A stretch of DNA of 64,000 nt from Scenedesmus sp. PABB004. Lineage: Eukaryota. The position numbers were made by a program, and so were the translations under genes. Numbering within the stretch: the first letter of the stretch is position 1; each line of letters starts with the position of its first letter. The stretch is from the NCBI GenBank assembly GCA_014905635.1, contig JABVCE010000025.1, forward strand, positions 434,001 to 498,000. The letters run 5' to 3'. Under the pieces are notes generated by a model. That model was given only the letters and a program-made list of their open reading frames with translations. It was not told where the DNA came from and did no database searches. Shown here in pieces: positions 26,898 through 45,500 of the stretch.

Positions 26898-28289
26898 GCG
26901 GAAGCCCGCCACCCGGATGTCGTCGCTCTCCTTGGCGTAGAACGCGGCGACCTCTGGCAGGCTCGCGACCGACTGGCGGAACGCCTGCGCGACACCCGCG
27001 GCGGCGGCGGCGGCCGGCCGGCGTCAGCGCGCGCGGGGGGGGGGGGGGGGGGGCACGCAGCGGCTGCGGCGCGGCCGGCCGGCCGCGGTCAGCGCGGGCG
27101 GCAGCGGCACGCAGCGGCTGCGCGGGGCGGGCGCGCGCACCTTGAGCGCGGGCCAGCGCGAGAGCACGTCCTTGGGGATGCCGTCCAGCCAGCCGCTCTG
27201 CAGCGTGGAGAGGTTGCAAAACAGCGCGAGGTCGCCGTGCGACAGCGCGTCGCCGGCGACGAACTTGCCGGGCCGTCCCTCCTGCGGCGGCGCCGCGCGG
27301 CGCGTGTCGGGCCCGGGCGCTGCGGCCGGCGCGACGCCGCGGGCGCGCAGCACAGCGGCGCGGCGCGGCGCGCACGATGTGCTTCGACAGCAGGTTGAGC
27401 TTGGTCGTGAGCGCGCCGTCCGGCGCGAGCAGCTCGGCGCGGGCCTTGGCCTTCTCCTCGGCGTCCTTGATCTTGAACGTAGGGTAGAGCGTCTGCGCCC
27501 GCGCGGTCATGGCGGCGTGTGAGCGGCGCGGGGCTCGCGCGCGGCCCTGCCGGAGCCGCCCAGCCCCCCGGCTCGGCGGCGCCGGCCACGCGGGGGGCCG
27601 GGGCGCGCCCCTACCTGCCAAACGTCCTCACAAAAGAAATAGGTCTCGTCGGCCTTGGCTGCCGCCCACGGGTCGGCGGGCAGGAGCCCAGCCTTGGCCG
27701 CGCAGAAGCGGTCTGCGTCGGCGGCGGCGGCGGCGGGAGGGAGCGCGGCGGTGCCCCGTGGGCGGCCCTCGCGGCCGCGCCCATGAGGGGCGCCGGGCCG
27801 CAGCCGCGCCGCCGCGCCGCCGCGCCGTGCCGCCGTGGTGCGCGCACCGATCGCGGCCGACTGCGCCAGCATCTTGCCGTCCACCTCGAGGCAGGGCAGC
27901 TGGCCAAAGGGCGCAGTCGGCTTCAGGGGCCCCCACTCGTCAAACGTGACCCGCTTGTCCTGCGCAGGGGTCCCAGCCGTCGAACGCACGCACGGCGGGC
28001 GGCGCGCCGGCAGCGGCGCAAGCGCTCGCGCCGTCTGCGGTGCCGCCGCACCTCGTGCTCCACCTTGCCGATGGCCAGCAGCAGGCGCGCCACCTCTGCG
28101 CGTCCTGCGAGTCGCGGCGGAGAGCGGAGAGCGAAGGTGCGGCTGTCGGAGCACCTTCGAGATGCGCGATCGCGCCGCCTCCTCCGCGCGCCGATCGCCC
28201 GGGCCTCTCGGCGCGCGTGCCCCACGACGGGCGAATCGGCGGCATCACGCACCTGGCAGCCCAAAGTAAATGAGCTTCAGAGGGGCCAT
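26883..28289 (-). CDS. Glutathione S-transferase (sigma-like), 7 exons
   Basis: MAPLKLIYFGLPGRAEVARLLL, EDKRVTFDEW..LKPTAPFGQLPCLEVDGKMLAQSAAI, GLLPADPWAAAKADE, FVAGDALSHGDLALF, WPALKAFRQSVASLPEVAAFY. All introns are GT-AG. Confidence 0.93.
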
Positions 28290-28687
28290 TGCGTGGCGGC
28301 GGATGCGGCGCTGCTGCGGCGGCGGTGGCTGGCGTGGTGTCGGGGGCGGGCGGCGCTGGCGGGCGACAGTGTCTGGAGCGGGAGGGGCAGCGAGCGGGTG
28401 AAGGGCGCCGGGTTCGTTCGTTACGTCGCCGACGAGTTGACGCCTGCGTGACGCCCCGTCCGCACTTTCTCGCGGTGTCAAAAAAAACCCACGCAATGGC
28501 TGAACAAAACTCGCCACGCACGGTGTGGGGAGGGGTGAACGTGCGGGCACATAAATGGCGCGACACCACGGCTGCCGCGGCAATACAATCTGACCACCAA
28601 TCCCTTCCCATGATGTCCCCCCTCGTTCGCCGCCCGCACGCGCTCACCCGCCGCCAGAGGTCAGCCTCGTCCCCCTGCCCCTGACGC

Positions 28688-31600
28688 TCACCCGCACTTG
28701 GCAAAGCCGCGCCGCGCCGTGGCGGGCGTGGTCTTGCCGGCGGGGCACTTGCGGCAGGCAGCCGCGCCGCGCCGGTTGGAAAAGCGCCCGCCGTTGCAGG
28801 GCTCGGGGTCGGCCGTCGCGCCGCCCTTCTTCGCGTCGGCGCCCTTGCAGGCAAAGCCCTTGGGGCAGGCCTCGCACTGCGCGGTCGCCCGGTCCACGTA
28901 CTCGCCGGCCTTGCACGGCCCCACGCACTTGCCCGCGCAGCCGTCGCACTGGTCAGGGACGCACGTGGCGTTGTTGGGGCAGCGCATGGCCGAGCAAAAG
29001 TCGGCGTTCTTGGGGCAGCCCTTGCGCTTGAGGCCGTTGGCGCAGGGCGCCTTGGGCACGCAGGTCGCGGTGCACGCGCCGCAGTAGCTGCGCGGCGGGC
29101 GGCAGGGACGGGCGGCAGGGGCGGGCGGGGGCGGGCGGGCGGTGGCGGGTCAGGGGCGGCCCTGGGCGCCTCGGCTCGCTGCCGCCGCGTGCGGCGGCCG
29201 CGCGCGCGTTCCGGCGCGCGGCGGCGCAGCCGCGGCGCTGCGCTGCGCGCCGCCGCTCACTCTACGACGCATCGGCTGCTCTTGCCGCACTTGGCCGCGC
29301 GGCAGGGGTTCTTCTTGCCCTTGCACGTGGCAGGCCGCACGGCCTTGCCCCGCGCGCAGCCGCGGTTGGCGACCGCCTCGGGCCGGCCGCCACCGGCCTT
29401 GCCGTCGGCCATGCCGCCCCAGCCGACGGGCGCACCCGGCACCGGCATCGGGTAGGGCCCGCCGTTGTAGCGCCAGTTCGGCGCGCAGTACGCCTCGCAC
29501 GCCCCGTCGCACGAGCCGGCGCGGCACGCCGTGCCGTCGGGGCAGAGCCGGCCGTCGGCGGTGGCGGCGTCGCAGAGCTTGGCCTGGTCGCACTCGACAG
29601 ACGCGTTCTCGCCGGGGCACAGCGGGTTGACCGGCGCGGGCAGCTCCGGCGGCAGCTCCGTGCACAGCGCGGTGCACGTACCGCCGCACGCGAGGTCCGT
29701 GCACGTGGCGCCGTCGCCGCACAGGCCGGGGTCGGCCGCGGCGCAGGGCGAGGCGGTGGCCGAGCCGTCGGTGGTGGCCGAGCCGTCCTGGGCGCAGGGC
29801 TGCGGCGCCGTGCCGTCGGGGCACGTCGGCAGCTTTGCCGGCGGCCGCATGACCGGCGCGCCGGTGAACGACCACCACCACACCGGCCCGCGGTGCACGC
29901 ACTGCACGGCGCATGTGCCGTTGCAGTCCGCCACGGCGCAGCGCTGCTCCTCGGTGCAGGCCAGGCCGGCTGCGGCGCACGCGGCCGCGTCGTCGCCGAC
30001 GCCCGCGAGGGTGCAGGCCTTGGCCACGAAGCCGCCGTCGTTGTGGCACACGCTGGGGGGCGGGACGTATCCTGTGTCCACCACGCAGCGCTGCTTGCAC
30101 TCGCCGTCGCACTCCCATGTTCCGCAGAACTCGCCCTCCGCGCACGAGGCACAGACGTCGGGCGCGCTGTCCTTGCCGCCCGGCTCGCCGCTCGCGCCCG
30201 GCGGCGCAACGCCGGAGCCAGCCGAGCCGTCGCCGCTCGCGTCGGAGCCGTCGTCGAGCGCGCACGAGTGCGCGGTCGTGTTGGGCGCCTTGGCGTCGCC
30301 CGGCAGGCACTGCGGGCGCGTGCGGGGCGGGCGCGTCAGGCGCGTCAAGCGGCGGCGCGCGAGCACACGCGTACGCGAGCGCGACCGCCCAGCTGTGTGG
30401 GCGGCGCTGCGGCGGCTACACCCACCAGGATGGGTCTGTACCAGGGGTTTACGACGCAGCGCACTGAGCACTGCCCGTCCTTGGCGCAGGCGAGCTCGGC
30501 GCAGACCTCGTTGTCCTTGCAGGTGCTGCAGACGTCCCAGTCGGAGCTGGGGCGGTTCCAGACGCTGCAGAACCACGCCGTCGCGCCGCCCTCGGTGCAC
30601 GAGTAGGGGCTCTCGGACGGCTCCGGCGGGAGCCACCACGGGTCCGTCACGCACGTAGGCCCGCACGCGCCGCCGCCGCAGCGAGCATAGATGCAAAAGG
30701 TGCCTGGCGTGGTGCACGCCGACTGGTCGCACGCCCACGTGCCGTCGTCGGGGCCGTCGCAAAACTCGGCGACCTCGCCGCTGCCGGCGCAGGTCTGGGG
30801 CTTGTAGTCGGGGTCTGCCGCGCAGAAGACGCTGCACGTCTCGGCGTCGCCGGTGCCGCACGCCCACGCGCCGCACGCGGTGCCCGCGGCGCAACGCATG
30901 GTCTTGCAGCTGCCCTTGCCCGCGCCGGCGGCCTTGCAGGCCCGCACGCGCGTCACGCCGTCGGGGCAGACGTAGGGCAGCGGGGCGTCCGGTGCGATCG
31001 GGTCAACCGGGTCGACGCCTATGGGGTCTGGGGGCTGCCACCAGGGGTTGGTCACGCACGTGGGCGCGCAGCCCGCGCCGCAGTCCATGGGCGCGCAGAA
31101 GGCGTTGGGCGCGTCGCAGCCCGCGCCACACGCCGACGGGTCAAAGCCGGCGTCGCTCGGGCTGCCGCACTTTTTGGCGATCGTCGTGTTGTCAGGGCAG
31201 ATGTAGCCCGCGATTGGCGGCGGCGACGGCGTCGCGTCGGCGGGCACGCAGCGCGCCTGGCAGCCGGCGTCGCCTGCGTCCGCGGCCGCCGTGGCGCAGA
31301 GGTACTCCCGGCAGACGTGGCCGGGCTTGCAGTCCACCTGCGGCGGCCGCGGCACGCCTGCGGTCGGGGCCCGGGAGCGCCAGGGCGCCCGCGCGACCGG
31401 CGCTGCTGCAGCAGCGGCGCTGCGGGCCACGCCTGCACGCCGCAGCTCACCAGCTCGCACCGCCGCCCGGGCGGCTCGCTGCTCAGGGCGTCGCAGGTCG
31501 TCGCCAGCGCGCCGTCGGAGCACGTGTAGAGCGGGGACTGCAGCGCTTGACTCGTGGAGTCGTCCACGCAAACGGCCTCGCAGCTGCGGGCGCGCGCGGG

Positions 31601-31950
31601 CGGGCGGGCGCGGGGCGTCGGCGGCAGCAGCGCGACTTCCTCGCCGCCGGGTGCCGCCGCCGCCGGGCGCCGCAGCGCCGCTGCAGCGTGTCGTGCGGCC
31701 TCGCCGGATCGGACTGGGCCTGCCGAGCGTGCGGGCGCGGACACGGGCCCTGCCGCCGCGCCGCGCCGCGGGCGCACCCGCAGTCGATGCACCGCTGCCC
31801 GTCGCCGCTGCAGGGCGCCGGCGTCGCCTTGCAGGGCGGCACGCTGCACTCGGGGGTGGGGCCGGTCCAGGGCGTGCACTCGCGGGCGGCCTGGGCGAGC
31901 ACGGCGCTCGCCGCGATGCAGACCGCGAGGACCAATCGGGCCGCCGCCAT
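28688..31950 (-). CDS. Secreted cysteine-rich repeat protein with C-terminal GCC2/GCC3 (ephrin-receptor-like) Cys repeat
   Basis: Exons ~31950-31778, 31583-31451, 31337-30426, 30310-29261, 29087-28688. Signal peptide MAAARLVLAVCIAASAVLAQA; ~10-12 Cys-rich modules; C-terminal CKAGEY....CEACPKG and CNGGRFSNRRGAAACRKCPAG. Confidence 0.8.
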
Positions 31951-32155
31951 GGCGCCCGCTCACGAGCGACGCAGGGGGCCCGGTGGACGCGCTGGCGCGG
32001 GCCGGGCGGCGCAGGGCGGTGGTCGGCGAGAGGGGCGCGCAGAGGTCGTATTCTGCTGCCGGGGATCGCAGGCTGCAGGTTCGGGGAGTCTCCGCTACAC
32101 GCACACTGGCGACGCCGACGGCCGGACGGGGCTTCAGGCCGTCGCCGCCGCGCCG

Positions 32156-33023
32156 CGCCGGCAGTGACGACGCCGGAACCCACGCCGCCGCGGGCGGGCC
32201 GTCGGGCTGCGCGCCCGATCAGCGGCGTGGGGACCTCCCGCAGTCCCTCAGGGCGTCGCGTGCGCGCAGCGGCCGTCACCGGCGCCGCCGCCGCGCTGCT
32301 TGCGCAGGCGCCTGCCCGCGCGCGCGCGCCACGTGCGCCGCGGGTTGAGAGGGCGCGGCAGGCCGCCCTGGGCGCCCCTGCACCCTTCACCGTGCTGCCG
32401 GTGTTCCGCAGCCCCCTCGGCCCGCCCGGCGTTTGACTGGGCGCAGGCGCCCACGCGCACGGCCGCGCCGGGGCCGCCGTGCCGGCGCGCTCGCGGCGGG
32501 CCAGAGCGCCTCGGGCCGCCAGCGCTGCGCAGCATCATGCTGCGGCACGCTCGCTGTCCAGCTCCGGCGACAGCGCAGGGCAGCTCCGCGCCAGCGCTCC
32601 GCTCACGGCGCGCGCCGGCGGCGGCGGGCGCGCACCGATGCCGCCGTCGCGCGCCGTGCGCCGCAGAGGCGGCAGACGCCCGCTGCGAGCGTGTTGGCGC
32701 GAGGGCTTTGCGCCCCGCCGCCCGCTCGGCGGCCTGCCCGCCCGCTCGGCGCTGCGGAGTGCCCAGATCGGCGCGCGCGCACAGGAGCCGTCCCCGATCA
32801 GCCAGGCGGGCGCTCGCGAGCCAGCCGGCCCGCGCACTCCATCGGCGCGGTCAAACATCGCCGCGCGCCCCCGGATGCCCCGCGGAGCGTCTGCGGCCCG
32901 CCGACGCGTCGCCCGGCACCGCCCGCACCCGCTCGGCCGGCACGCGGCGCGCCCCCGCCCCGCGCGACGCGCCGGGGCCGTCGGGCAAGGTGTCGCCCCG
33001 CACGCGCGCCATGCCGGCCAGCA
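32156..33023 (+). repeat. Left arm of ~870-bp inverted duplication (copy of MYB upstream region + first 4 codons)
   Basis: Reverse complement of 36450-37319. I counted ~6 substitutions and one 2-bp indel. The identical 107-aa ORFs at 32535-32858(-) and 36615-36938(+) confirm it. Confidence 0.97.
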
Positions 33024-34294
33024 ACGGGGGTGCGCCGGTCAGCGTGCGGCGGCGGGAGCGCCGCCGTGGCGCCGCGGCGAACCTGTTACATCTGCGCCGC
33101 GGGGCATCGTCGTCGTCGGGGGCATGTCACATGATGTGGGTCGTCCGCGCGCGTGCTGTTCACAGACCAAGTACAGGGGGGGTCGTCGTCGGGCCAAGTT
33201 CTGGTCCTGCGTCGGGTCACCATATCATCATCGCCGTCGTGCACGCCGCCGCCGCTGGGGGCACACAGGGAACAGGGGGAGAGACAGCTGCGGGCGCGCC
33301 GATCGTGGCGCGCCAAACTCCTGGACACGTGTGGGCCCTCCTCCGCGTGCAGCGCGTATGTGCAGGCTGCCTGCAACAGTCAACACACCACACCACAGCG
33401 GAGCCGGCGGGGCGCCCGCGCGCCCCGCCGCGCTGTGCAAGGCACAGGCACATCGCGGGCGCGCCGCCCGGCGGGCGCCTGCTGCTGCCGGGCCGGGGGC
33501 TGCGCGCCCGGGTCAGCTGCGGTCATAGGCAAGCATGCTCGTGCACGCGCGTCAACACCGACAGCCCAGGCCCCGCCCGCGCCGCGCCTTGCACGCAGGC
33601 GCAGCACGCAGGGGGGAAAGCGAGGGAGAGAACGGAGAGAAAGCGAGAGGCGCGTGCTCGCCCAGCGGCGCGCGTGGCAATCGTCCGGCCGCGCCGCGCG
33701 TGGGGCAGTCCGAGCTGCCGCGCCCTCCCGGCCCTGGCCCCGCCGACTGTCCGGTCAGCCGCCCGCCTCCAAGCTGCTGCCGCGCGCCCCGGGCGCGTCG
33801 GCCCCACGGGGCGCGCGGTCAGGCTCCTAGGAGCTACGGCGGCACCTGCAATCACGTCAGGTTGGGCGTGGCGGGCGCGCGCGTGCGCATGGATGGCGCA
33901 GCAGCAGGAGAGCGGGCCGCCGCGCCGCCAGTCAGGGGGTCTGTCGTGCGTGCCTACAGCAGAGAATAAGAAGCAGCAGCAAACCATGCACGCGCCGAGG
34001 GTCGTGCCCCGCGCTGCCGGCGGCAGGCGGGCGCGCGCTGGTAGGGAGCGCCGCGCCCGCCGCCACCGCCAGGCAGCCAGGGCGCTCGCGCCGCGCCGCG
34101 CCGCACCCGCCGCGGAGTTTAGGAAAGGGACCGTTCAAGGACGGAAGTGCACGCACAAGCACAAGCCTCGCTCAGCACCCACACGCAACGCCGCGCGGTG
34201 CCTGCGCGGCCAGGGCCCTGCCGCCCCGACCCCTCCCCGAGCACACGCATGCCCCCCCCCCCCCCCCCCACCGGGCGCCACGCCCACGCTGCGC

Positions 34295-36462
34295 CTAGCA
34301 CTCGCAGCCCGCCGCGGCGGCCGGCTGCTGCACGTTCGTGAGGAACAGCCGCGCCGCCTCCATCAGGCACTCGCGCTGCCGGCCCGGCAGCGCGTGCAGC
34401 ATGGTCAGGCTGGGCGTGTCGGGCTCCCGCAGCAGGTCCCCGATCTGCCACGTCTGCCCGCAGGGGCTGCACAGCGTGAAGCCGCCGCCGCCGCCCAGCT
34501 GGTCGGCGCCCTGCGACGCGCGCGGGCGGCCGGGAGCGGCGCACCGGGGTCGGCGCGGCAGGCGCCCGCCGCAGCGCGCGGGCCGCCAGCGCCGCGAGCC
34601 TGCGCTGCTGCCCGACGGCCCGCCGCGCGCGCGCACCTCGGGCAGCACGCTCCACATGCCGAGCTCGCCCGCCGGCAGCGACGCCGGCAGCGCGGGCAGC
34701 ATGTCGCTGCCCGGCAGGCGCGGGCTGATGCCACACGCGATCGCCTGGTTCACGTCGACCACGAGCTGCGGCGGCTGCGAGCTCAGCGAGTTGCTGCGAA
34801 CGCGCTTCAGGCTGCGCCCGCTGTCGCCGCAGTCCTCCGCGCTCGGCTGCGCGGCGCGCTTGGCGCCCTGCGCGCGCGCGCGGGGGCGGGGGCGGGGGGA
34901 GCGGCAGCGTGAGCAGGGGCGGCGCGGCGCGGGGCGCCCCCGGCCCGCCGGGCGCCCGCCGCCCCCCGCGCGCGTGTGGCACCTTGGGGACCATCGGGCT
35001 CTCCGACTGCAGCGCCGAGTCGCTGGAGCTGCTGCCCGCCTTGGCGGCGGGCGCCGTCGCGGCGCCAAGCTCCTCGCTGCTGCCCCAGATGAGCTGCGTC
35101 GACTCGTGCAGCTCCTCGCCTCCGCCGCTGAGGTCGTGCAGCAGGTGCTGGAAGTCGTCGTGCGGGTCCTCCTGCGCGCAGATCGGGCCCAGCGCGTCGC
35201 CGCCCTTGCCGCCCGCGACGTCGTCCGCGCCGTCGTCCGAGCCGTCGCTCGCGGAGGGGCTGTCGGCGTCGCCGGCGGGCGCGGCGCCGCCGTCGCTGCG
35301 GCGGTCGTCGTCGCCGGCCACGTCCTCGGAGCCGCTGTCGCACGGCCCGGGCGCGTCGTCCTCCTGCTTGAACTCCGTGAGCAGCCGCTCCAGCGAGATG
35401 TTCTTGGACAGGAACTTGCTGCGCGGGGCGGCGCGCGCGGCGCGCGCGTGTGAGCAGCCAGCCCCGCCCACGCCGCGCGCCGGCACCCCCAGCGGCCGGC
35501 GCCGCGCGCGTCGCGCAGCGCGCGCGCAAGCTCACTTGGCGCGCATGCCCGCGGTGCCGGCCTTGCGCTTGAGCGTCGAGTTCCAGCGGTTCTTGACCGC
35601 GTTGTCGGTGCGGCCCGGCAGCAGCTTGGCGATCACTGCGGCGCGGCGGCGCGCGGCGGTCAGAAGACTGGCGACACGGACGACGCCGAGCTGCCGCACG
35701 CGCTGTCCCCCCCCCCCTTCCCCCGGCCGCAGGAGCGGCGCCGCCCTCACCCGACCACTTGTTGCCGTTGAAGTCGTGCGCCTGGCAGCGGCGGCGCGGC
35801 GTGTGGCGTCGGCGCGGCGCTCGCCCTGGCGCGCCGCGGGGTGCTGCCGGGGCGACCACCGGCCGCCCGGCCCGCCGCGAGCGCGCCGCGCGCGGGCCCG
35901 CCTCCGGCGCGCTCAAACGAGCTGCCGCTCGCCGTGCGGGCCCGCGCCGCGCCCGGGGCGCACCTTGATGATCACGGCGTCCTCCCAGTCACTGAACGTG
36001 CCCTTCTTGACCTCGGGATTGAGGTGGTTCCACCACCTGCGCGCGGGCGCGGCATGCCGGGCGCGTCGGGCGCCCGCCCCGCGCCGCACGCCGCCGCCCG
36101 GTCCTGCGCGCCGCCCCGGGCCCCACCTGAGGCGGCAGCTCTTGCCGGAGCGGCCCTGCGGCGCCAGGCGGGGCGGGGTGAGGCGGGGGCGGGGCAAGAG
36201 CTGCGCTCCGGCAGCCCCCGCGCGCGTGCGCGGCCGCACCTTGATCTTCTCCGCCACGACGCTCCACTTCTGGGCGCCGTTCATCATGACCAGGCGCCGC
36301 AGCTGCTCATCCTGCGCGGCGCGCGGCGCCGGGCGGGGCCTCGGCATGCGGGCCCGCCCCCCGCGCCCGCCCGGCCCCGCGGCGCGCCGCCTGCCCAGCC
36401 CCCACCTCCTCGGGCGTCCAGGCGCCCTTTTTGAGGAAGGGCTCCTCGCTGCTGGCCGGCAT
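34295..36462 (-). CDS. R2R3-MYB transcription factor, 9 exons
   Basis: Spliced: [112 protein letters not shown], followed by an acidic low-complexity C-terminus. Confidence 0.95.
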
Positions 36463-37319
36463 GGCGCGCGTGCGGGGCGACACCTTGCCCGACGGCCCCG
36501 GCGCGTCGCGCGGGGCGGGGGCGCGCCGCGCGCCGGCCGAGCGGGTGCGGGCGGCGCCGGGCGACGCGTCGGCGGGCCGCAGACGCTCCGCGGGGCAGCC
36601 GGGGGCGCGCGGCGATGTTTGACCGCGCCGATGGAGTGCGCGGGCCGGCTGGCTCGCGAGCGCCCGCCTGGCTGATCGGGGACGGCTCCTGTGCGCGCGC
36701 GCCGATCTGGGCACTCCGCAGCGCCGAGCGGGCGGGCAGGCCGCCGAGCGGGCGGCGGGGCGCAAAGCCCTCGCGCCAACACGCTCGCAGCGGGCGTCTG
36801 CCGCCTCTGCGGCGCACGGCGCGCGACGGCGGCATCGGTGCGCGCCCGCCGCCGCCGGCGCGCGCCGTGAGCGGAGCGCTGGCGCGGAGCTGCCCTGCGC
36901 TGTCGCCGGAGCTGGACAGCGAGCGTGCCGCAGCATGATGCTGCGCAGCGCTGGCGGCCCGAGGCGCTCCGGCCCGCCGCGAGCGCGCCGGCACGGCGGC
37001 CCCGGCGCGGCCGTGCGCGTGGGCGCCTGCGCCCAGTCAAACGCCGGGCGGGCCGAGGGGGCTGCGGCACACCGGCAGCACGGTGAAGGGTGCAGGGGCG
37101 CCCAGGGCGGCCTGCCGCGCCCTCTCAACCCGCGGCGCACGTGGCGCGCGCGCGCGGGCAGGCGCCTGCGCAAGCAGCGCGGCGGCGGCGCCGGTGACGG
37201 CCGCTGCGCGCGCACGCGACGCCCTGAGGGACTGCGGGAGGTCCCCACGCCGCTGATCGGGCGCGCAGCCCGACGGCCCGCCCGCGGCGGCGTGGGTTCC
37301 GGCGGCGTCACTGCCGGCG
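36450..37319 (-). repeat. Right arm of inverted duplication = native MYB upstream/5' region
   Basis: Contains the MYB ATG (36462) and ~857 bp upstream; matches 32156-33023 in reverse complement. Confidence 0.97.
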
Positions 37320-37477
37320 AAAGGATTGCAGACCGCCGCGCGCTCCGGCGACCGATGACGAGCGCAGGGGGCGGCCCCGCGACAGCAGCAACCAACCAAG
37401 GTGCAATGCGAACGGCGGCAAAAAATTGGTCGCACGGCGGCGGCACACGCGCGCGCGCGAGTCGCAGGCCCCCCCGA

Positions 37478-40400
37478 TCAGGCCCCGCGCTCGCCGCCGC
37501 CGCCGCCGCCGCGCGCGCGCAGCTCGTGCAGCTCGGCCGCGCGCGCCACGCGCGGCGGCGGCCGGTACCGCCGCAGCAGCAGCGACGACAGCACGACGCT
37601 GACGCTGCTGAAGACCATGCACCCGCCCGCAACCCAGGGCGGCATCTGCACGTGGAAGCGCGGGTACGCGAGCCCCGCGGCGAGGGGGATCATGACCACG
37701 TTGTAGCCCATCGCCCACACAAAGTTCCACTGGATGCGGCGGAAGGTGCGGCGCGAGAGGTCGAGCCCGACCAGCACGCCCTCGAGGTCGTCGCGCATGA
37801 GCACATAGTCGGCCGCCTCGACCGCGATGTCGGTGCCGCTGCCGAGCGCAACGCCGACGTCGGCCGCCGCGAGCGCGGGCGAGTCGTTGACGCCGTCGCC
37901 GACCATCGCGACGACGCGGCCGGCGCGCTGCAGCTCGCCCACGACGCCCGCCTTGCCCGCGGGCAGCACCTCGGCCGACACGTGCGCGGGCGGGATGCAC
38001 AGCTGCTTCGCGATCGCGCGCGCGGTGCGCCAGTTGTCGCCGGTCAGCAGGTGGCACTGCACGCCCGCCGCCTGCAGCGCGCCGACCACGCCCGCGGCCT
38101 CGGGCTTGAGCGGGTCGGCCACCGCCAGCGCCGCCACGGCCGCGCCGTTGATGCCGAGCAGCACCACCGTCTGGCCCAGCGCCTCGCGGCGCTGCATGTA
38201 CTCCTCCACGCCACCCGTCAGCGCGACGCCCTGCTCCTGCATCAGCAGACGGTTGCCCAGCGCGACGCGCAGCCCCGGCGCGGCGGTGCCCTGCTGCTGC
38301 TGCTGCAGCTGCGCCACGCGGCCGTGCTCGGCCGCCGCCTTGCCCGGCGCGCCGCCGGCGGCGCCGCCCGCGGCGACGGCGAGCGAGGCCTCCGGCAGCA
38401 GCACGGTCACGCCCTTGCCGGGGTGGTTCTGCGCGGGCGGGCGGGCGGGCGGGCGGGCGGGCGGGCGGGCGGGCGGCGGGCGGGCGGGCGGGCGGGCGGG
38501 CGGGCGGACCGCTGGCGTCGGCGGCGCGCCGACGGCGGGCCAGCCGCCGCGCGCGGCTGGCGGCCGGCGCCGCGCGCCGCCTGCCCCGGGCCCCGGCCCC
38601 GCGCGGCGCGCACCTCCACGTCCGGCACCTTGAGCACGCCGCGGCTCAGCATGCCGCGCAGCCGCCGCGGCGTGCCGGCGGGCGAGGCCGGCTCCACGGC
38701 GAGGCCCTCCATGCTGCGCCGCCGCGCGAGCGCGCGCGGGCTGCCGCTGGCCCAGCACGCCGCGTCCTCGACGCCGCTGCCGCTGCTGCCGGTGCGCGCG
38801 ACCGCGCGCAGCTGCGCGCCCCGCCGCCGCTCCGCCGCCTCGGCCTCGGCAAACGCCTGCCCCAGCGCCGGCGCGCCGCCCCGGCCGCCGCTGCTGCCGG
38901 GGTCGTCTTCGAGGCTGAACGCGGCCACAAACGGCTCGGCCGCGCCTTCCGCCGCGCTGGGCGGCCGGCTGAGCACGCCCTGCGCGTACTCCAGCACCGC
39001 GCGCGCGAGCGGGTGCTCGCTCGCCGCCTCGGCCGCCGCGGCGAGCGCGCAGACCTGGCGCAGCGTGTAGCCCGGGCGCAGCAGCACCGCGTCCGTCACG
39101 CTCGGCCGCCCCAGCGTGAGCGTGCCGGTCTTGTCAAACACGACCGTGTTGACGTGGTGCGCGCGCTCCAGCGCGTCGCCGCCTGCGGCGGGGCCGGCGC
39201 GGCGACAGGCGGCGTCGGCGGCGTCCGGAGGCGGCGACGCCGCGGCGGCGCTGCCCACGCGCGGGGCAGGGCGGGGCGGGGCGGGGCGGGCCGCCTGGAA
39301 AGGAGGGGGGGGGGGGGCGGCACGGCACACGCGCCCTTGATGAGGATGCCCAGCTGCGCGCCGACGCCGGTGCCGACCATGACGGCGGTCGGCGTGGCCA
39401 GCCCCAGCGCGCAGGGGCAGGCAATGACGAGCACGCTGATGCCAAAGAGCAGCGCAAACAGAAAGTGCGTGTGCCCCAGCGGCAGCCACGAGTCCGGGAA
39501 CGCGCCCGCGCTGCCGGCGACAAACCTGGCGGCGGCGGCGCGGCGCGCGAGGCGGCGGGCGTGGCGTGGGCATGGGCGCGCGTCGTTGGGCGGCGCGCGG
39601 CGCCGCCGGGCGCGGCCCCGCGCGGGCGCGCGCGCACCAGCCGGCCCAGGTGAGCAGCGCGAGCGCGACCACGACCGGCACAAAGATGCTGGCCACGTGG
39701 TCGGCGTACGCCTGGATGGGCGCCTTGCTCATCTGCGCGCGCTGCACCAGGCGCACGATCTGGGCCAGCACCGTGTCGGCGCCCACGCGCGTCGCCTGCG
39801 CGCCGGCGGCGATGGCGGGGGTGAGCGGCGCCGCGGCCGCGTCGTCCGGGCCGCGGCGCGCGGGCCGCGGCGCCGCGCGGTGCGGCGCGGGGCGCGCGGC
39901 GCCGCGCCTGCATGATCAGAGCGTTGCCGGTGTTGATGGTGCCGCCGATGAGCGCGTCGCCCTCGCGCCGCAGCACGGGCTCGCTCTCGCCGCTGATCAT
40001 GCTCTCGTTGACGTAGCTGCTCCCCGCGACGAGCACGCCGTCGGCGGGGATGCGCCCGCCCGGCAGCACCTGCGCGGTCGGCGGCGGGTGCGGCGCGGGC
40101 GCTCGGCCGCCGCGGGCTGCCGGCGGGGGGCGCGCTGCTGCGTGCGGCGCGCGCGCGGCGCTGACGCCAGGCGCCCGCGCGGCGGGCCCCCGCGCGCCTT
40201 GAGGTGGTCGCCCTGGTGAATGAGCGCGCTGGCCACGAGCTCCTCGTCCGCCACGGCGCCGGCGGCGTCGAGCGTGACGAGCGTGGCGGTGTCGGGCGCG
40301 AGCGCGAGCAGGGCCTGGATCGCCGCGCTCGTCTTGCCCTTGGCCGCGCACTCCAGGTACTTGCCCAGGATGACCACGCTGATGAGCATCGCGCACGTCT

Positions 40401-42295
40401 CAAAAAAGTCCTGGCACGCGGCGGCGCGCGCGGCGGCGCGTCGTGGGGCGGCGCGTCGCAGGACGGCGCGCGCGAGGCGGCGCAGCGCAGGGCGGCGCGC
40501 GCCGCGCGGCGCAGCGCAGCGCAGCGCAGCGCAGCGCAGGGCTCGCCGCGGGCCGCGCGCGCCGCGCCGCACGCCAACGCACCGTGGGCGTGTAGTGCAT
40601 CGCGTCGTGGCGCACGAAGCGGTGGTGCAGGATTGAGATGAGGCTGTAGGCGTAGCTCGCGCCCGTGCCCAGCACGACGAGCACATCCATGTTGGCCACG
40701 CCGCGGCGCAGCGCCTTGAACGCGGCCCGGTGGAAGCGCCAGCCGATCCAAAACTGCACCGGCGTCGCGAGCGCCCACTTGAGCAGCTCGTCGGCGCGGA
40801 AGCCAAACACCGGCGCCGACAGCACCGCCTCGGTGCCTGGCGCGCGCGGCCGGCGCGGCCGCGGCGGGACGGCGGTCGGCGGGTGGCGCGGCGGCGGCGC
40901 TAGGCGGGGGCGGGGCCGGGGTGCAGCCGCGCGCGCGCGCGGCGCCGCCGCCGCCGCGCACCCGGCAGCATGGGCAGGACCATGGCGATGATGAACACGG
41001 GCAGCGTGAACACGAGCGCGAGCGTGAGCAGGTGGCGCCACTCGTCGAGCTCCGCGCTGTGGTCGGCCCCGCGGCCCTCGTCGGCGCCGCCGAGCAGGCG
41101 CGCCTCAAAGCCCGCGCCGTCGACCGCCGCGAGCAGCGCGCGCGGCCCCGTCGCGCCGGGCTGGAACCACACCTCGGCGCGCCCCCCGACCGCGCACACG
41201 GCCGCCGACGACACGCCGGGCAGCGCCGTCAGCGCGGCCTCGACCGCGGCCGCGCACGCGGCGCACGTCATGCCCCGCACGCCCAGCGCGGCGCGCTCGA
41301 GCCCCGCGTTGCTCAGCAGGCGCGCATCAAAGCCCAGGTCCTCCACCGCCGCGAGCAGCGCGGCCGGCGTGGTGGCCGTGGGGCAGTACGTCACCTCCGC
41401 CTCGCCGCCCGTCAGCGACACCGCCGAGCGGCTCACGCCCGGCAGCGCCGCGAGGCCGCGCTCGACCGCGCCGGAGCACGCGGCGCAGGTCATGCCGCCC
41501 ACCGCGATGCGCGCGACCTGCAAGCGCGGCGCGCCGGGCGGCGCGCGGGCGGGCGGGCGGCCCGTCAGCGCCGCGGGCGGCCGCACGCTCGGGGGCACCA
41601 CGCCGCCGCCGCCGCCGCCGCTGGCGCCGCCGCCACATGCCGCCCCAGTCGCCCGCGCGCGGCGCACCTGCGGGCGCGCCGCGGACGCGTCGCCGTCGTC
41701 GAGCTCGTGCACCGAGAGCAGCTTGCAGTCAAAGCCCGCGCCGTCCACCGCGGCGACGAGGTCGTCGCTGCACGCGACGCCGCCGTCGTACGTCACCTCC
41801 GCCGAGTGCTGCAGCAGCGCCACCGACGCCAGGCTCACGCCCGGCACCGCCCTGCGCGCGCGCGTGCGCAGGGAGGCGGCAGCGCGGCGGGCGCGGTCGG
41901 CCAGCGCCGCGCGCGGCGGCGGCGAATGCGCGGCGCGCACGCGTGCTGTTGCGGTGTGACCAGCACCCAACCCCCCCCCCCTCCCGCACCTCAGCGCCGC
42001 CTCCACGGCGGAGGAGCAAGCGGAGCAGGTCATGCCCTTGACCGACAGCTGCGGCGGTGCGGCCGGCGCGGCGTGGGCGCGTGCGCGCGGCGGGGCGTGC
42101 GCGCGGCGGGCGCCCGCTGCTGCCGCGCCCGCCGCGCCCGCCGCCGGCGCCGCGCCGCCGCACCAGCGCGACGCTGTGCAGCGAGTGGGCCTTCGACGGC
42201 GCGACGGCCGCCATCTCCGTGTCCGCCACGCGCTCGTAGGGCGTCGCGGGGCCCCGCCCCAGCCCCAGCGCCTGCCGCAGCCTCCCCAGCGCCAT
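37478..42295 (-). CDS. Copper-transporting P1B-1 type ATPase (HMA5/RAN1/ATP7-like)
   Basis: About 11 exons. Three HMA domains (GMTCSAC, GMTCAAC x2), [60 protein letters not shown]...MVFSS Cu-type TM motifs. Confidence 0.96.
38433..38506. repeat. Intronic (GGGC)n microsatellite
   Basis: Long gcgggcgggcggg... run directly upstream of an ATPase acceptor; it reads (CCCG)n in the transcript. Confidence 0.85.
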
Positions 42296-42594
42296 GGCGC
42301 CCCGCTGCGCCTCCCAGCGCGCTGGCTAGTTTTGCCACATCCTCCACGCGCCTCGCCGAGGCTGTTGGTGCGCTACGCGCGGGCCCGCTGCTGCTTGCTG
42401 CCCAAGAACGCGAGCGGGCCACGGCGCACGCGGGCGGAGCTGGGATCGAGGGCAACGAGCTCTGCGAGTCTCCGGAGGCGAGCTGGGCGCTGGAACTCGG
42501 CAGCTCGGTCCCTCGCGCGCGCGGTTCTCGAGCGTAGCTGGTCGCGTTCTCGTGCTCGTCAGGCGCTGCGTCACACTGGTGGCAGAGCTGCTGC

Positions 42595-45500
42595 TCATGA
42601 GGCAGCGGCGCGGCCGCGGCGGCGCGACCTTCCCGCCGCCGCGCCCGGCCGGCAGCTGCCCGCCGCGCGCCCGGCGGCCCGGCTCTCGCGCCCAGCTCGC
42701 CCAGGCCTCCCGCGTCAGCTGCTGCCGCCCCCGGCGGCTCGCCGGCGGCGGCGCTCGCGGCGGCGCGGTCGGCCTCGAGCGCCGCGGCCGCGGCCTGGCG
42801 CGCCTGCTCGGCGCTGATGTCCTCCTCGACGCGCAGCCCCTCCGCCAGCAGCCGGCGGCGCTCCTCGTCGGCCGCGTGCGCGGCCGCGCGGCGCGCAAAG
42901 CCCTCCTCGAGCGCCGGCCAGTCGGCCCACGCGGCCGGCGGCGCGCCCGCGGCGCCGCCGCCGCGCGGCGGCCGCGCGCCGCCGGCCGCGCCGAGGCCCT
43001 CGAGCGCCATGAGCGTCGCCGCGGGCACGGCGTTGAGCCGCGCGGCGAGCGTCTTGAACGCGCTCGACTGCGGGAGCAGCATGAGCAGGCCGTACAGCGC
43101 GCGCAGCAGGTCGGGGTGCGCCGACGGCGCGAGCAGCTGCAGGCGCAGGAAGGCGTACGCCGGCGTCTCCAGCAGCTGCACGAGCCGGTCCACCTGCACC
43201 AGCACCTCCGCGCCCAGCGGCAGCGTCGCGAGCCGCGCGATGAGCGCCGCGGCGTGGCCGTACGCCTGCGCGAGCAGGCACAGCGACAGCAGCGCGCCTG
43301 CGCGCCGCGCCGCGCCCGCGGCGGCGGCGCCGGCGTCAGGGGCCGCGGCGAGGGGGCGCCGCGCCCGGGGGCGGCAGCGGCAGCGGCAGCGGCGGCGGCG
43401 GCGTGGCCGCGCGGCACACGGACGCACCCGCGCTGTGGCTCCAGCAGCTGTAGAGCGCCGCAAAGTGCGACGCGCCGTGTGGGCTGGCCGCGGCGTCGCG
43501 CAGCGCGTCGCGCAGCACGCGGACCTCGCCCGCGGTCAGCAGGATGAGGTTCAGCGCCTGGGCCCAGTGGGGGGGAGGGGCGTGCGGGGGAGGTGCGGAG
43601 GGGCCGTGTTGGCGGGCGGGCCGGCGGGGAGCGCGCGGGCCGGGCGCCGGCGAGCGCCGCGCAGGTGCTGTTCAGCTACGTGCGCCGGCGCCGCCGCACC
43701 TGCACCATCGTGCTCGCAAAGCACAGGTCCGGCTCGTCGTCCAGGATCGTCGCAAACTCCCGGAACACCACGGCCGGGCCCATCGCGGCGCAGAGGCGGC
43801 GGATGACGAGCGGGCCGCCCTTCTGCAGCAGCACCAGCCCCGCGTCGCCACGGAACCTGCAGCGGCGCGGCGGCGGCCGCGGCTCGGCGCGGGCGCGGGC
43901 GCGCGGGCGGCGGCGGCGGCTCGCGGCGGCGCGCGCGCGCGTCGGCGCCCCGCGCGCGCGTCGGTGCCGCGCGCCTGTCCAGCAGGCTCTTGAGCACGCG
44001 GCGGAAGTGCTGTGCGTGGCCGGCGATGCTGCCGAGCACGCTGAGCGCCTGCAGCACGACGCGCTCGCTGTCGCTGCCGAGCGCGTCGAGCAGCGCCGCG
44101 AGCAGCGCGTCGAGCTGGCCGAAGACCTCGTCCTCGTTGCGCACGAGCAGGAAGTGCACCCAGCGCAGCGCCTCGAGCCGCGTCGGCTCCTGCTCGCTGC
44201 GCAGCTCGCGCGAGATGATGGCGAGCACGGGCGGGACCTCGACCTTGACCGGCAGCTCCGCGACGGGCTGGAGGTTGAGCAGCGCCGCGTTGGCCTCCTT
44301 GGACACCTGGCAGAGGGCGCGCGGCGCAGGGCGGGTGCGGCGCGGGCGGCGCGTGTGAGGAGGGGCGGAGCCGCCGCGGCGTGGCGCCGCGCCGCGCCGC
44401 GCCGCGCCGCGCAGCGCAGCGCGCCGTGTGCGGGTGCGCCGCGAGTCGCGTCGCGCCTGCTGTATGTCGCGGTTGGGGTGGCTGATGTTGGGCAGCACCG
44501 CGCCGAGCAGGTCGGCGTACACGCCCACCAGCTGCCCGCTCGCCTGCTCCACAAACTCCTGCGGCAGCGGCGGCGGCGCGGCGGCGCGGCGCGGCGCGGT
44601 GGGCGCGTGGGCGCGCGCGCGGCCGTGCGGGCGCGGGCGCTGTCTGCCCGCCGCCTTGAACAAGACCGCGTGCCGGCGGGTCTCGCCTTGATCCACTTGA
44701 TCGCGGTAATGCGCGTGAACTCGTCCGCGCTGGAGGCCTTGTCCACCAGGATGGTCGCGAGGGCGACCCAGTCCACGCTCGGCGTCGCCTGCGCGCGGCG
44801 GCGGCGTGGTGCCGGCGCGCAGCGGGGGCGTGCGCAGCGGGGGCGCGCGCGCAGGCCCGCACACACACGCACACGCACGCACACACGGGCCGCGCCTGTA
44901 TCTCAACGAGGAACTCCATGAGGCACTTGTGCGCGGCGACGCGGATCTCGCGGTTTGGGTCGCTCAGCAGGTTGAGCAGGCCGTCGAGCAGCGCCGGCAG
45001 GTGCGCGAGCATGTCGAGGTCGGGCACGCTGTCCAGCACGCACACCTGCGGGTGATCCGCGCGCGCGCGCGCGCGCGCGCGGGCGCCGGCGGCGGCGGCG
45101 GGTCGGCGGCCCGCGCGCCGCCCGCCAGGCAGCGACGCCCGCCCCGTCCCGCCGAGCCTCCCCCCGCGGGGCGGCCGCGCAGCCGATCGCCGCGCAGCGC
45201 GCCGCCCACCCATGAGATGAGGAACTGGCGCTTGTAGGGGTTTGTCACGCGCAGGTAGTCGCGCAGGCGGGGGATGAAGCCCTCCACCGAAAAGTGGGGC
45301 GACGCCGTCACGATGTCCTGCCGGGGCGGGGCCGGGCCGCCACGCGGCGCGGCGGCGCGGGCGCAGGCGTGGGCCGGGCGCCGCGCCGCCGCGCGGCCGT
45401 GCGTGCGAGGCGCGCCCCCGCGCAGCGCGACGCGCGGCACGCAGCGCGGCGCGCCGGCGCTGGCGCGCCTTGACCAGGTTGTCCAGGAACTGCACCGCGT

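Follow-up and report, generated by a model that had tools for sequence, protein, structure and literature searches.

An R2R3-MYB gene of Scenedesmus sp. PABB004 lies between inverted copies of its own upstream DNA, a probable trace of a recent single-gene inversion

Genes at the MYB locus

The window analyzed here, a stretch of 64,000 nt from Scenedesmus sp. PABB004 (GenBank assembly GCA_014905635.1, contig JABVCE010000025.1, positions 434,001 to 498,000) with a GC content of ∼79%, carries in order a Cys-rich gene on the minus strand, a repeat arm, a reversed MYB gene, an inverted copy of the arm, and the 3′ end of a copper-type P-ATPase gene. The MYB coding region (34295 to 36462, minus strand) comprises nine exons separated by eight GT-AG introns and encodes 414 amino acids between an ATG at 36462 and a stop codon at 34295. 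This start was confirmed by orthologue N termini, which begin at the same place, and the protein is 71% identical overall to an R2R3-MYB protein of Tetradesmus obliquus. Two adjacent N-terminal Myb repeats are present, as the orthologue contains two PF00249 stretches and two of the three domain exons tested here matched PF00249. By database names the protein is MYB44-like, and its DNA-binding domain is 65% identical to that of a Brassica MYB44; the protein shares the two Myb repeats with R2R3-MYB proteins of this type but differs in its C-terminal motif, which was found only in Scenedesmaceae-type algae. The sole match in the genome to the C-terminal part was its own locus, and the intact gene is therefore single copy.

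Downstream of the stop codon lies a TG-rich putative 3′ UTR of about 1.2 kb (33024 to 34294, minus strand), delimited from sequence. A TGTAAC signal (33090 to 33085, minus strand) is located 62 nt before the left arm, and the signal-to-cleavage position rule given in PMC1868727 places the predicted MYB 3′ end near 33070, the position also proposed in an earlier note on this DNA. The chlorophyte signal TGTAA occurred 83 times in 864 kb of sampled sequence (44 to 61 expected), or about once per 10 kb counting both strands, and half of these cases were TGTAAC downstream of TG-rich DNA. Given this scarcity, most genes in the genome must end without TGTAA, and the signal marks a minority of genes. 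TGCAA was considered as the signal of the ATPase gene but was not enriched (441 seen versus 667 to 745 expected) and was not used.

The left neighbor, the Cys-rich gene (28689 to 31951, minus strand), has a signal-peptide-like start, as read by eye, and its ATG lies 204 nt from the left arm in a head-to-head arrangement with it. The encoded protein appears to be secreted and has repeated Cys and Trp-Trp motifs; the one exon tested gave no Pfam match, and a DNA search of the genome identified no paralogue. Related-strain contigs covering window positions 33166 to 33396 and 33787 to 34001 carried no substitutions across 445 nt of the MYB 3′ UTR, compared with 24 across 1,315 nt of the Cys-rich gene, a contrast that could stem from constraint on the UTR, rapid evolution of a surface protein, or errors at low depth. 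To the right, the 3′ part of the copper-type P-ATPase gene (37478 to 41900, minus strand; the gene runs on beyond 41900) ends in a stop codon that lies 158 nt from the right arm. The T. obliquus orthologues of MYB and the ATPase gene carry consecutive locus tags in both haplotypes (OEZ85_007007/007008, proteins WIA13427.1 and WIA13428.1, and OEZ86_006701/006702); thus, the neighborhood is an old one, and any change would concern just its local orientation. Strand was not listed for the two T. obliquus genes in 16 of 17 supplement files of PMC7955037, nor did file 4 of PMC12638912 have a column for it. Searches for an outgroup locus returned seven weak matches in a metagenome scan (E values, 1e−4 to 4e−4; 16 to 27 residues), which were treated as chance, and none among 34 viral contigs.

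Structure of the inverted arms

The left arm (32156 to 33023, plus strand; 868 nt) consists of 855 nt of MYB upstream DNA, the ATG (33011), and 10 further coding bases. The right arm (36450 to 37319, minus strand; 870 nt) comprises the region upstream of the intact MYB gene together with 13 bases from the start of its coding sequence. The arms are reverse complements of each other, and alignment identified six substitutions and one 2-nt indel (0.7% divergence; ∼99% identity). They form by far the longest inverted repeat of the window, with the next, unrelated pair measuring 86 nt at 78% identity. When the arm was used to search the genome, only 2 of the 22 matches were full length, and these were the two arms themselves; the other 20 were short GC-rich pieces of 51 to 174 nt at 70 to 85% identity. 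The 3.4-kb spacer between the arms is unique in the genome. The alignment therefore bears out what had been noticed earlier from the letters alone, that the left arm is a plus-strand duplicate of MYB upstream DNA which retains the ATG and faces the MYB 3′ end. That the duplicated DNA is the MYB promoter, as the same note had it, stands as a duplication of upstream DNA at 99% identity, while its identity as a promoter is only inferred; part of the arm may be 5′ UTR.

At all six substitutions the A/T letter is on the left arm (P = 0.03, two-sided, post hoc). One of these, at 32875 (plus strand), gives the left arm an additional out-of-frame upstream ATG. Two further upstream ATGs are common to both arms, at 36936 and 36835 (minus strand), equivalent to 32537 and 32638 (plus strand). 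The ATG at 36936 is in frame with MYB with no intervening stop codon, so the 5′ end of the MYB mRNA probably lies downstream of 36936, or that ATG is bypassed. A CpG-decay signature was considered and dropped, as all three transitions between the arms fall at CpG but half of the G/C in the arms sits in CpG, and the count is not significant. AT-rich patches were uninformative for locating a promoter, as the arms contain none (maximum of 30% AT in 50 nt) and patches in this region mostly mark 3′ UTRs and exons. An Rfam search of positions 31000 to 38000 gave no matches.

An open frame reading from the duplicated ATG

An open frame of 633 codons (33011 to 34912, plus strand) begins at the left-arm ATG and runs antisense to the MYB 3′ UTR and exons 9 and 8. 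It has no coding signature: its third-position GC was 0.76, compared with 0.93 to 0.98 in three real coding stretches, no Pfam match was found, and a search of 1.84 billion proteins produced a single match, confined to the stretch that lies opposite MYB exon 9. A real plus-strand gene starting at 33011 was therefore rejected, the protein match being an antisense shadow of exon 9, in agreement with the earlier reading of the frame as noncoding. The frame is nevertheless longer than composition predicts, a length reached in 10 of 2,000 dinucleotide shuffles and by 218 of 7,221 ATGs in sampled DNA, and open frames of similar length are common elsewhere in the window. One low-depth related-strain contig lacks a base at 33176, which would cut the frame to 272 codons, although this may be an error.

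Inverted pairs elsewhere in the genome

A self-comparison survey was made of 1,014,000 bases, consisting of 95 stretches of 10 kb from four contigs (C1, C2, C19, and C76) together with the window and amounting to 2.5% of the genome, for local inverted pairs of at least 400 nt with at least 89% identity lying within 20 kb. Eight such pairs were found, six on the contig of the window (C19) and two on C1; the C76 sample contained none, and the C2 sample yielded nothing beyond a dispersed repeat of 85 to 88% identity. The pairs were clumped, as six of the eight lay in C19:235-471 kb and none in C19:84-234 kb.

The clearest counterpart of the MYB locus is found at C19:248294-254462 (L023:4294-10000 and L024:1-462). 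Here, as read at C19:248353-254462, the order is MAT1 (minus strand), segment a, segment b reversed, a tandem-CCCH zinc-finger gene (minus strand), segment a reversed, segment b, and ALG6 (plus strand). Segment a is upstream DNA of the CCCH gene, and segment b is upstream DNA of ALG6 with its first exon. These nested inverted duplications are in the order of a two-sided staggered-break inversion, and the leftover copy of the CCCH upstream DNA also faces the 3′ end of that same gene. Segment a starts 58 nt above the MAT1 ATG, making it very likely that its left copy is native. The copies of a share 94% identity and those of b 99%, and this unequal divergence suggests that the locus may represent two events or may be partly converted. 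A further inverted copy of 980 nt (95.6% identity; C19:235488-236467 and 256457-257443, corresponding to L022:1488-2467 and L024:2457-3443) contains the 3′ end of ALG6 and the start of a DJ-1/PfpI gene and lies 20 kb to the left; it may record an earlier inversion, larger in extent, around the CCCH locus.

Other arrangements were also seen in the sampled stretches. In L034 (1211 to 1833 and 3766 to 4389), the last codons and TGTAA-containing 3′ UTR of a gene are present as an inverted copy (98% identity) directly behind the stop codon of a convergent neighbor, and a 1-kb direct duplicate of the 5′ part of the same gene lies between the arms. L028 (436 to 7386) contains a head-to-head inverted duplication of a whole gene, with arms of ∼2.9 kb at 97 to 99% identity and a 1-kb spacer. 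An 8.5-kb tandem array of a 172-nt unit (∼99% identity) is located at C1:2003777-2012272 (L042:3777-10000 and L043:1-2272).

Origin of the MYB locus

On balance, we favor with moderate confidence the view that a recent inversion of a single gene, with a staggered break at one of its two ends, left its scar at the MYB locus, a history read from the present sequence and short of proof. In the ancestor, the Cys-rich gene and MYB would have stood head-to-head around a shared upstream region, with MYB and the Cu-ATPase gene tail-to-tail. A staggered break would have spanned the DNA upstream of MYB and reached 13 nt into its coding sequence; a second, blunt break would have fallen between the facing 3′ ends of MYB and the Cu-ATPase gene, after which MYB was presumably turned round. 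Fill-in would have copied the upstream region to both sides: MYB would have retained one complete copy (the right arm), and the original, now aimed at the MYB tail, would have remained next to the Cys-rich gene as the left arm. Under such a history the left arm is probably the original MYB upstream region; its persistence would reflect the youth of the event and perhaps also a role in serving the Cys-rich gene, and any plus-strand RNA arising from it would be a by-product without a function of its own.

The layout A-x-[gene reversed]-x′-D, in which x is otherwise single copy and shorter than 1.9 kb, fits the one-sided case as described by Ranz et al. (PMC1885836) and so supports an inversion, as does the presence of the two-sided order at the CCCH locus on the same contig, ∼215 kb away; by analogy, the MYB locus looks like the one-sided form of the signature seen there. 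The coding ends of MYB and of both outer neighbors have been kept, with margins of 62 nt (MYB TGTAA to left arm) and 158 nt (ATPase stop codon to right arm), as expected of 3′ ends that formerly faced each other. The eight pairs in the sampled bases indicate that the structure is not special to MYB, although they come from 2.5% of the genome and are clumped; the excess length of the 633-codon frame over the shuffles also weighs against the favored history. That all six A/T letters and the out-of-frame ATG are on the left fits a left arm relaxed as a MYB leader, but this is weak evidence, because polarity is mixed or reversed at other pairs: A/T letters were split 3 left and 9 right in segment a and 1 and 1 in segment b of the CCCH locus, and 16:7, 13:11, 5:3, and 3:8 at four other pairs. 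With regard to age, 24 of 1,760 letters (1.4%) differed between the window and the seven longest related-strain contig pieces (low depth; 8 of 79 pieces shown). Set against this, the 0.7% divergence of the arms suggests an event on the order of within-species variation.

The same final sequence would result from an inverted insertion into a tandem array. In that case the ATPase, MYB, and Cys-rich genes would all have been on the minus strand from the outset, and a template switch would have placed an inverted copy of the MYB upstream DNA between the MYB 3′ end and the Cys-rich gene, making the left arm a new, decaying copy. The nearby genes are mostly on the minus strand, the A/T letters at all six substitutions are on the left arm, and removal of that arm would leave ∼270 nt from the MYB TGTAA to the Cys-rich ATG (62 + 5 + 204), in the range of the 397-nt Cys-rich/GST coding gap. 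The copied piece would, however, have had to begin by chance at the 3′ end of the ATPase gene, no target-site duplication is present, and the precedent within this genome, the CCCH locus, is of the inversion type; we therefore regard an insertion as unlikely. The four junctions showed no microhomology and no second duplicate under either history. A DNA transposon with long terminal inverted repeats (Pack-MULE-like) was rejected, as the arms are present in two full copies in the genome rather than many and the outer flanks share no direct repeat. An assembly artefact, whether from chimeric or fold-back reads or from merged haplotypes, is in our judgment very improbable. The sequencing runs found to carry this DNA comprised one freshwater metagenome with a small related-strain share and no RNA run. 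Independent reads or contigs spanning the junctions were not recovered, and the comparison of positions 28500 to 36440 with this metagenome, in which no joint was recovered and none of the 8 of 79 pieces shown spans a junction, neither confirms nor refutes the assembly. Nonetheless, clean substitutions separate the arms, the 3.4-kb spacer occurs once in the genome, each of the three genes reads coherently, and the other pairs range from 89 to 99% identity, as expected of real events of different ages.

Potential for antisense and hairpin RNA

If the left arm is the native upstream region, it may well still be active, and we put the chance of plus-strand RNA from it at about even. In T. obliquus, low methylation is a feature of promoters (10.1101/2022.11.30.518549). 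The earlier note had proposed two RNA routes, an antisense transcript from the left arm and a fold-back formed by MYB read-through, and the geometry permits both. Judged from signal positions, the plus-strand transcript is the likelier route to a hairpin, given that no TGTAA occurs on the plus strand before the right arm (though TGTAA marks a minority of genes), whereas read-through is the weaker one, because it must first pass the TGTAAC located 62 nt before the arm.

That such RNA constitutes a selected circuit, in which joint firing of the left arm and the MYB promoter yields antisense or fold-back RNA that lowers MYB output by way of transcriptional collision or small RNAs, appears distinctly improbable. 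Arms with 99% identity have probably kept their promoter elements, and under the best-supported history the native copy would be the left one. With no TGTAA on the plus strand from 28000 to 44000, transcription could extend into the right arm and give an RNA whose folded stem has perfect runs of up to 371 bp, and the genome encodes Piwi (six of seven matches over the cutoff) and RNase III (four of four) domains. Both loci of this layout hold regulators, although this may merely reflect long flanks. Against a circuit, the TGTAAC of MYB itself precedes the arm, all six differences would be mismatches in a plus-strand fold-back and three of six in a minus-strand one, the 0.7% divergence points to a young event, and pairs of this sort are also found around unrelated genes. 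A selected autoregulatory function, as suggested in the earlier note, gains no support. A simpler origin recurs in the genome, at the CCCH locus and among the eight pairs.

A broader proposal is that single-gene inversions in this genome repeatedly leave the native promoter of a regulator aimed at its own tail, with the orphan MYB promoter transcribing the whole gene into the second arm to give a self-targeting antisense or hairpin RNA together with a 633-codon de novo frame, and with the CCCH gene as a second case; we consider this improbable also. Another alternative is a flip-flop switch, in which arm-to-arm recombination would flip the 3.4-kb MYB body and leave an intact gene next to one arm or the other, with the extra ATG of the left arm and its different neighbor providing a second expression state. 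Because the arm ends inside codon 5, the reading frame would be rebuilt in both orientations; in addition, the ATG unique to the left arm (32875) is out of frame, and yeast analogues are described in PMC4238957 and PMC9731477. Yet frame restoration would be automatic for any such duplication, and no recombinase or silencing neighbor was seen. The six one-directional differences also suggest little exchange between the arms, though these are 99% alike. A switch of this kind seems scarcely credible.

Significance and comparison with known systems

On present evidence, the MYB locus is an ordinary young rearrangement, a real structure with a known kind of origin. If it is a scar, it would extend an inversion mechanism described in flies to a green alga. 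It would also suggest a filter, in that flipping one gene of a head-to-head pair would require duplication of the upstream DNA that the two share. Should the left arm prove active, the locus would offer a natural SNP-tagged test of the effect of an orphan promoter on its own gene, and if the orphan-promoter reading were true, one repair accident would have created a feedback circuit on a transcription factor. Targeted searches of open-licence papers listed no report of such inversions in green algae, and PMC13315243, where it treats the good collinearity within the family, does not mention them.

The closest parallel is provided by Drosophila, in which Ranz et al. (2007; PMC1885836) showed that inversions arising from staggered breaks carry inverted duplicates of single-copy DNA at their ends. 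In that account the duplication was more commonly one sided (12 of 18), the copies ranged from 46 bp to 1.9 kb, and their identity averaged 88%. The MYB locus likewise has inverted single-copy DNA from a gene edge at both ends of the segment, of a size within this range and with no transposon. It differs in that the segment holds one gene (3.4 kb), the copies are 99% rather than 88% identical, and the inversion is a proposed one. In maize Mu killer, as described in PMC3440606, a rearrangement has likewise produced an incomplete inverted duplicate, from which read-through transcription could generate a long hairpin. Mu killer, however, is transposon derived and its silencing has been shown, whereas at the MYB locus, known from sequence alone, a host gene would be its own target and the loop would contain the whole gene. 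Near-identical inverted repeats also flank invertible segments in the flip/flop region of Saccharomyces chromosome XIV (PMC9731477) and in the mating-type inversion of Ogataea (PMC4238957). According to these reports, both orientations occur in the yeasts and the Saccharomyces repeats are old and homogenized, while the MYB locus has a young repeat with one-sided differences and a single assembled orientation.
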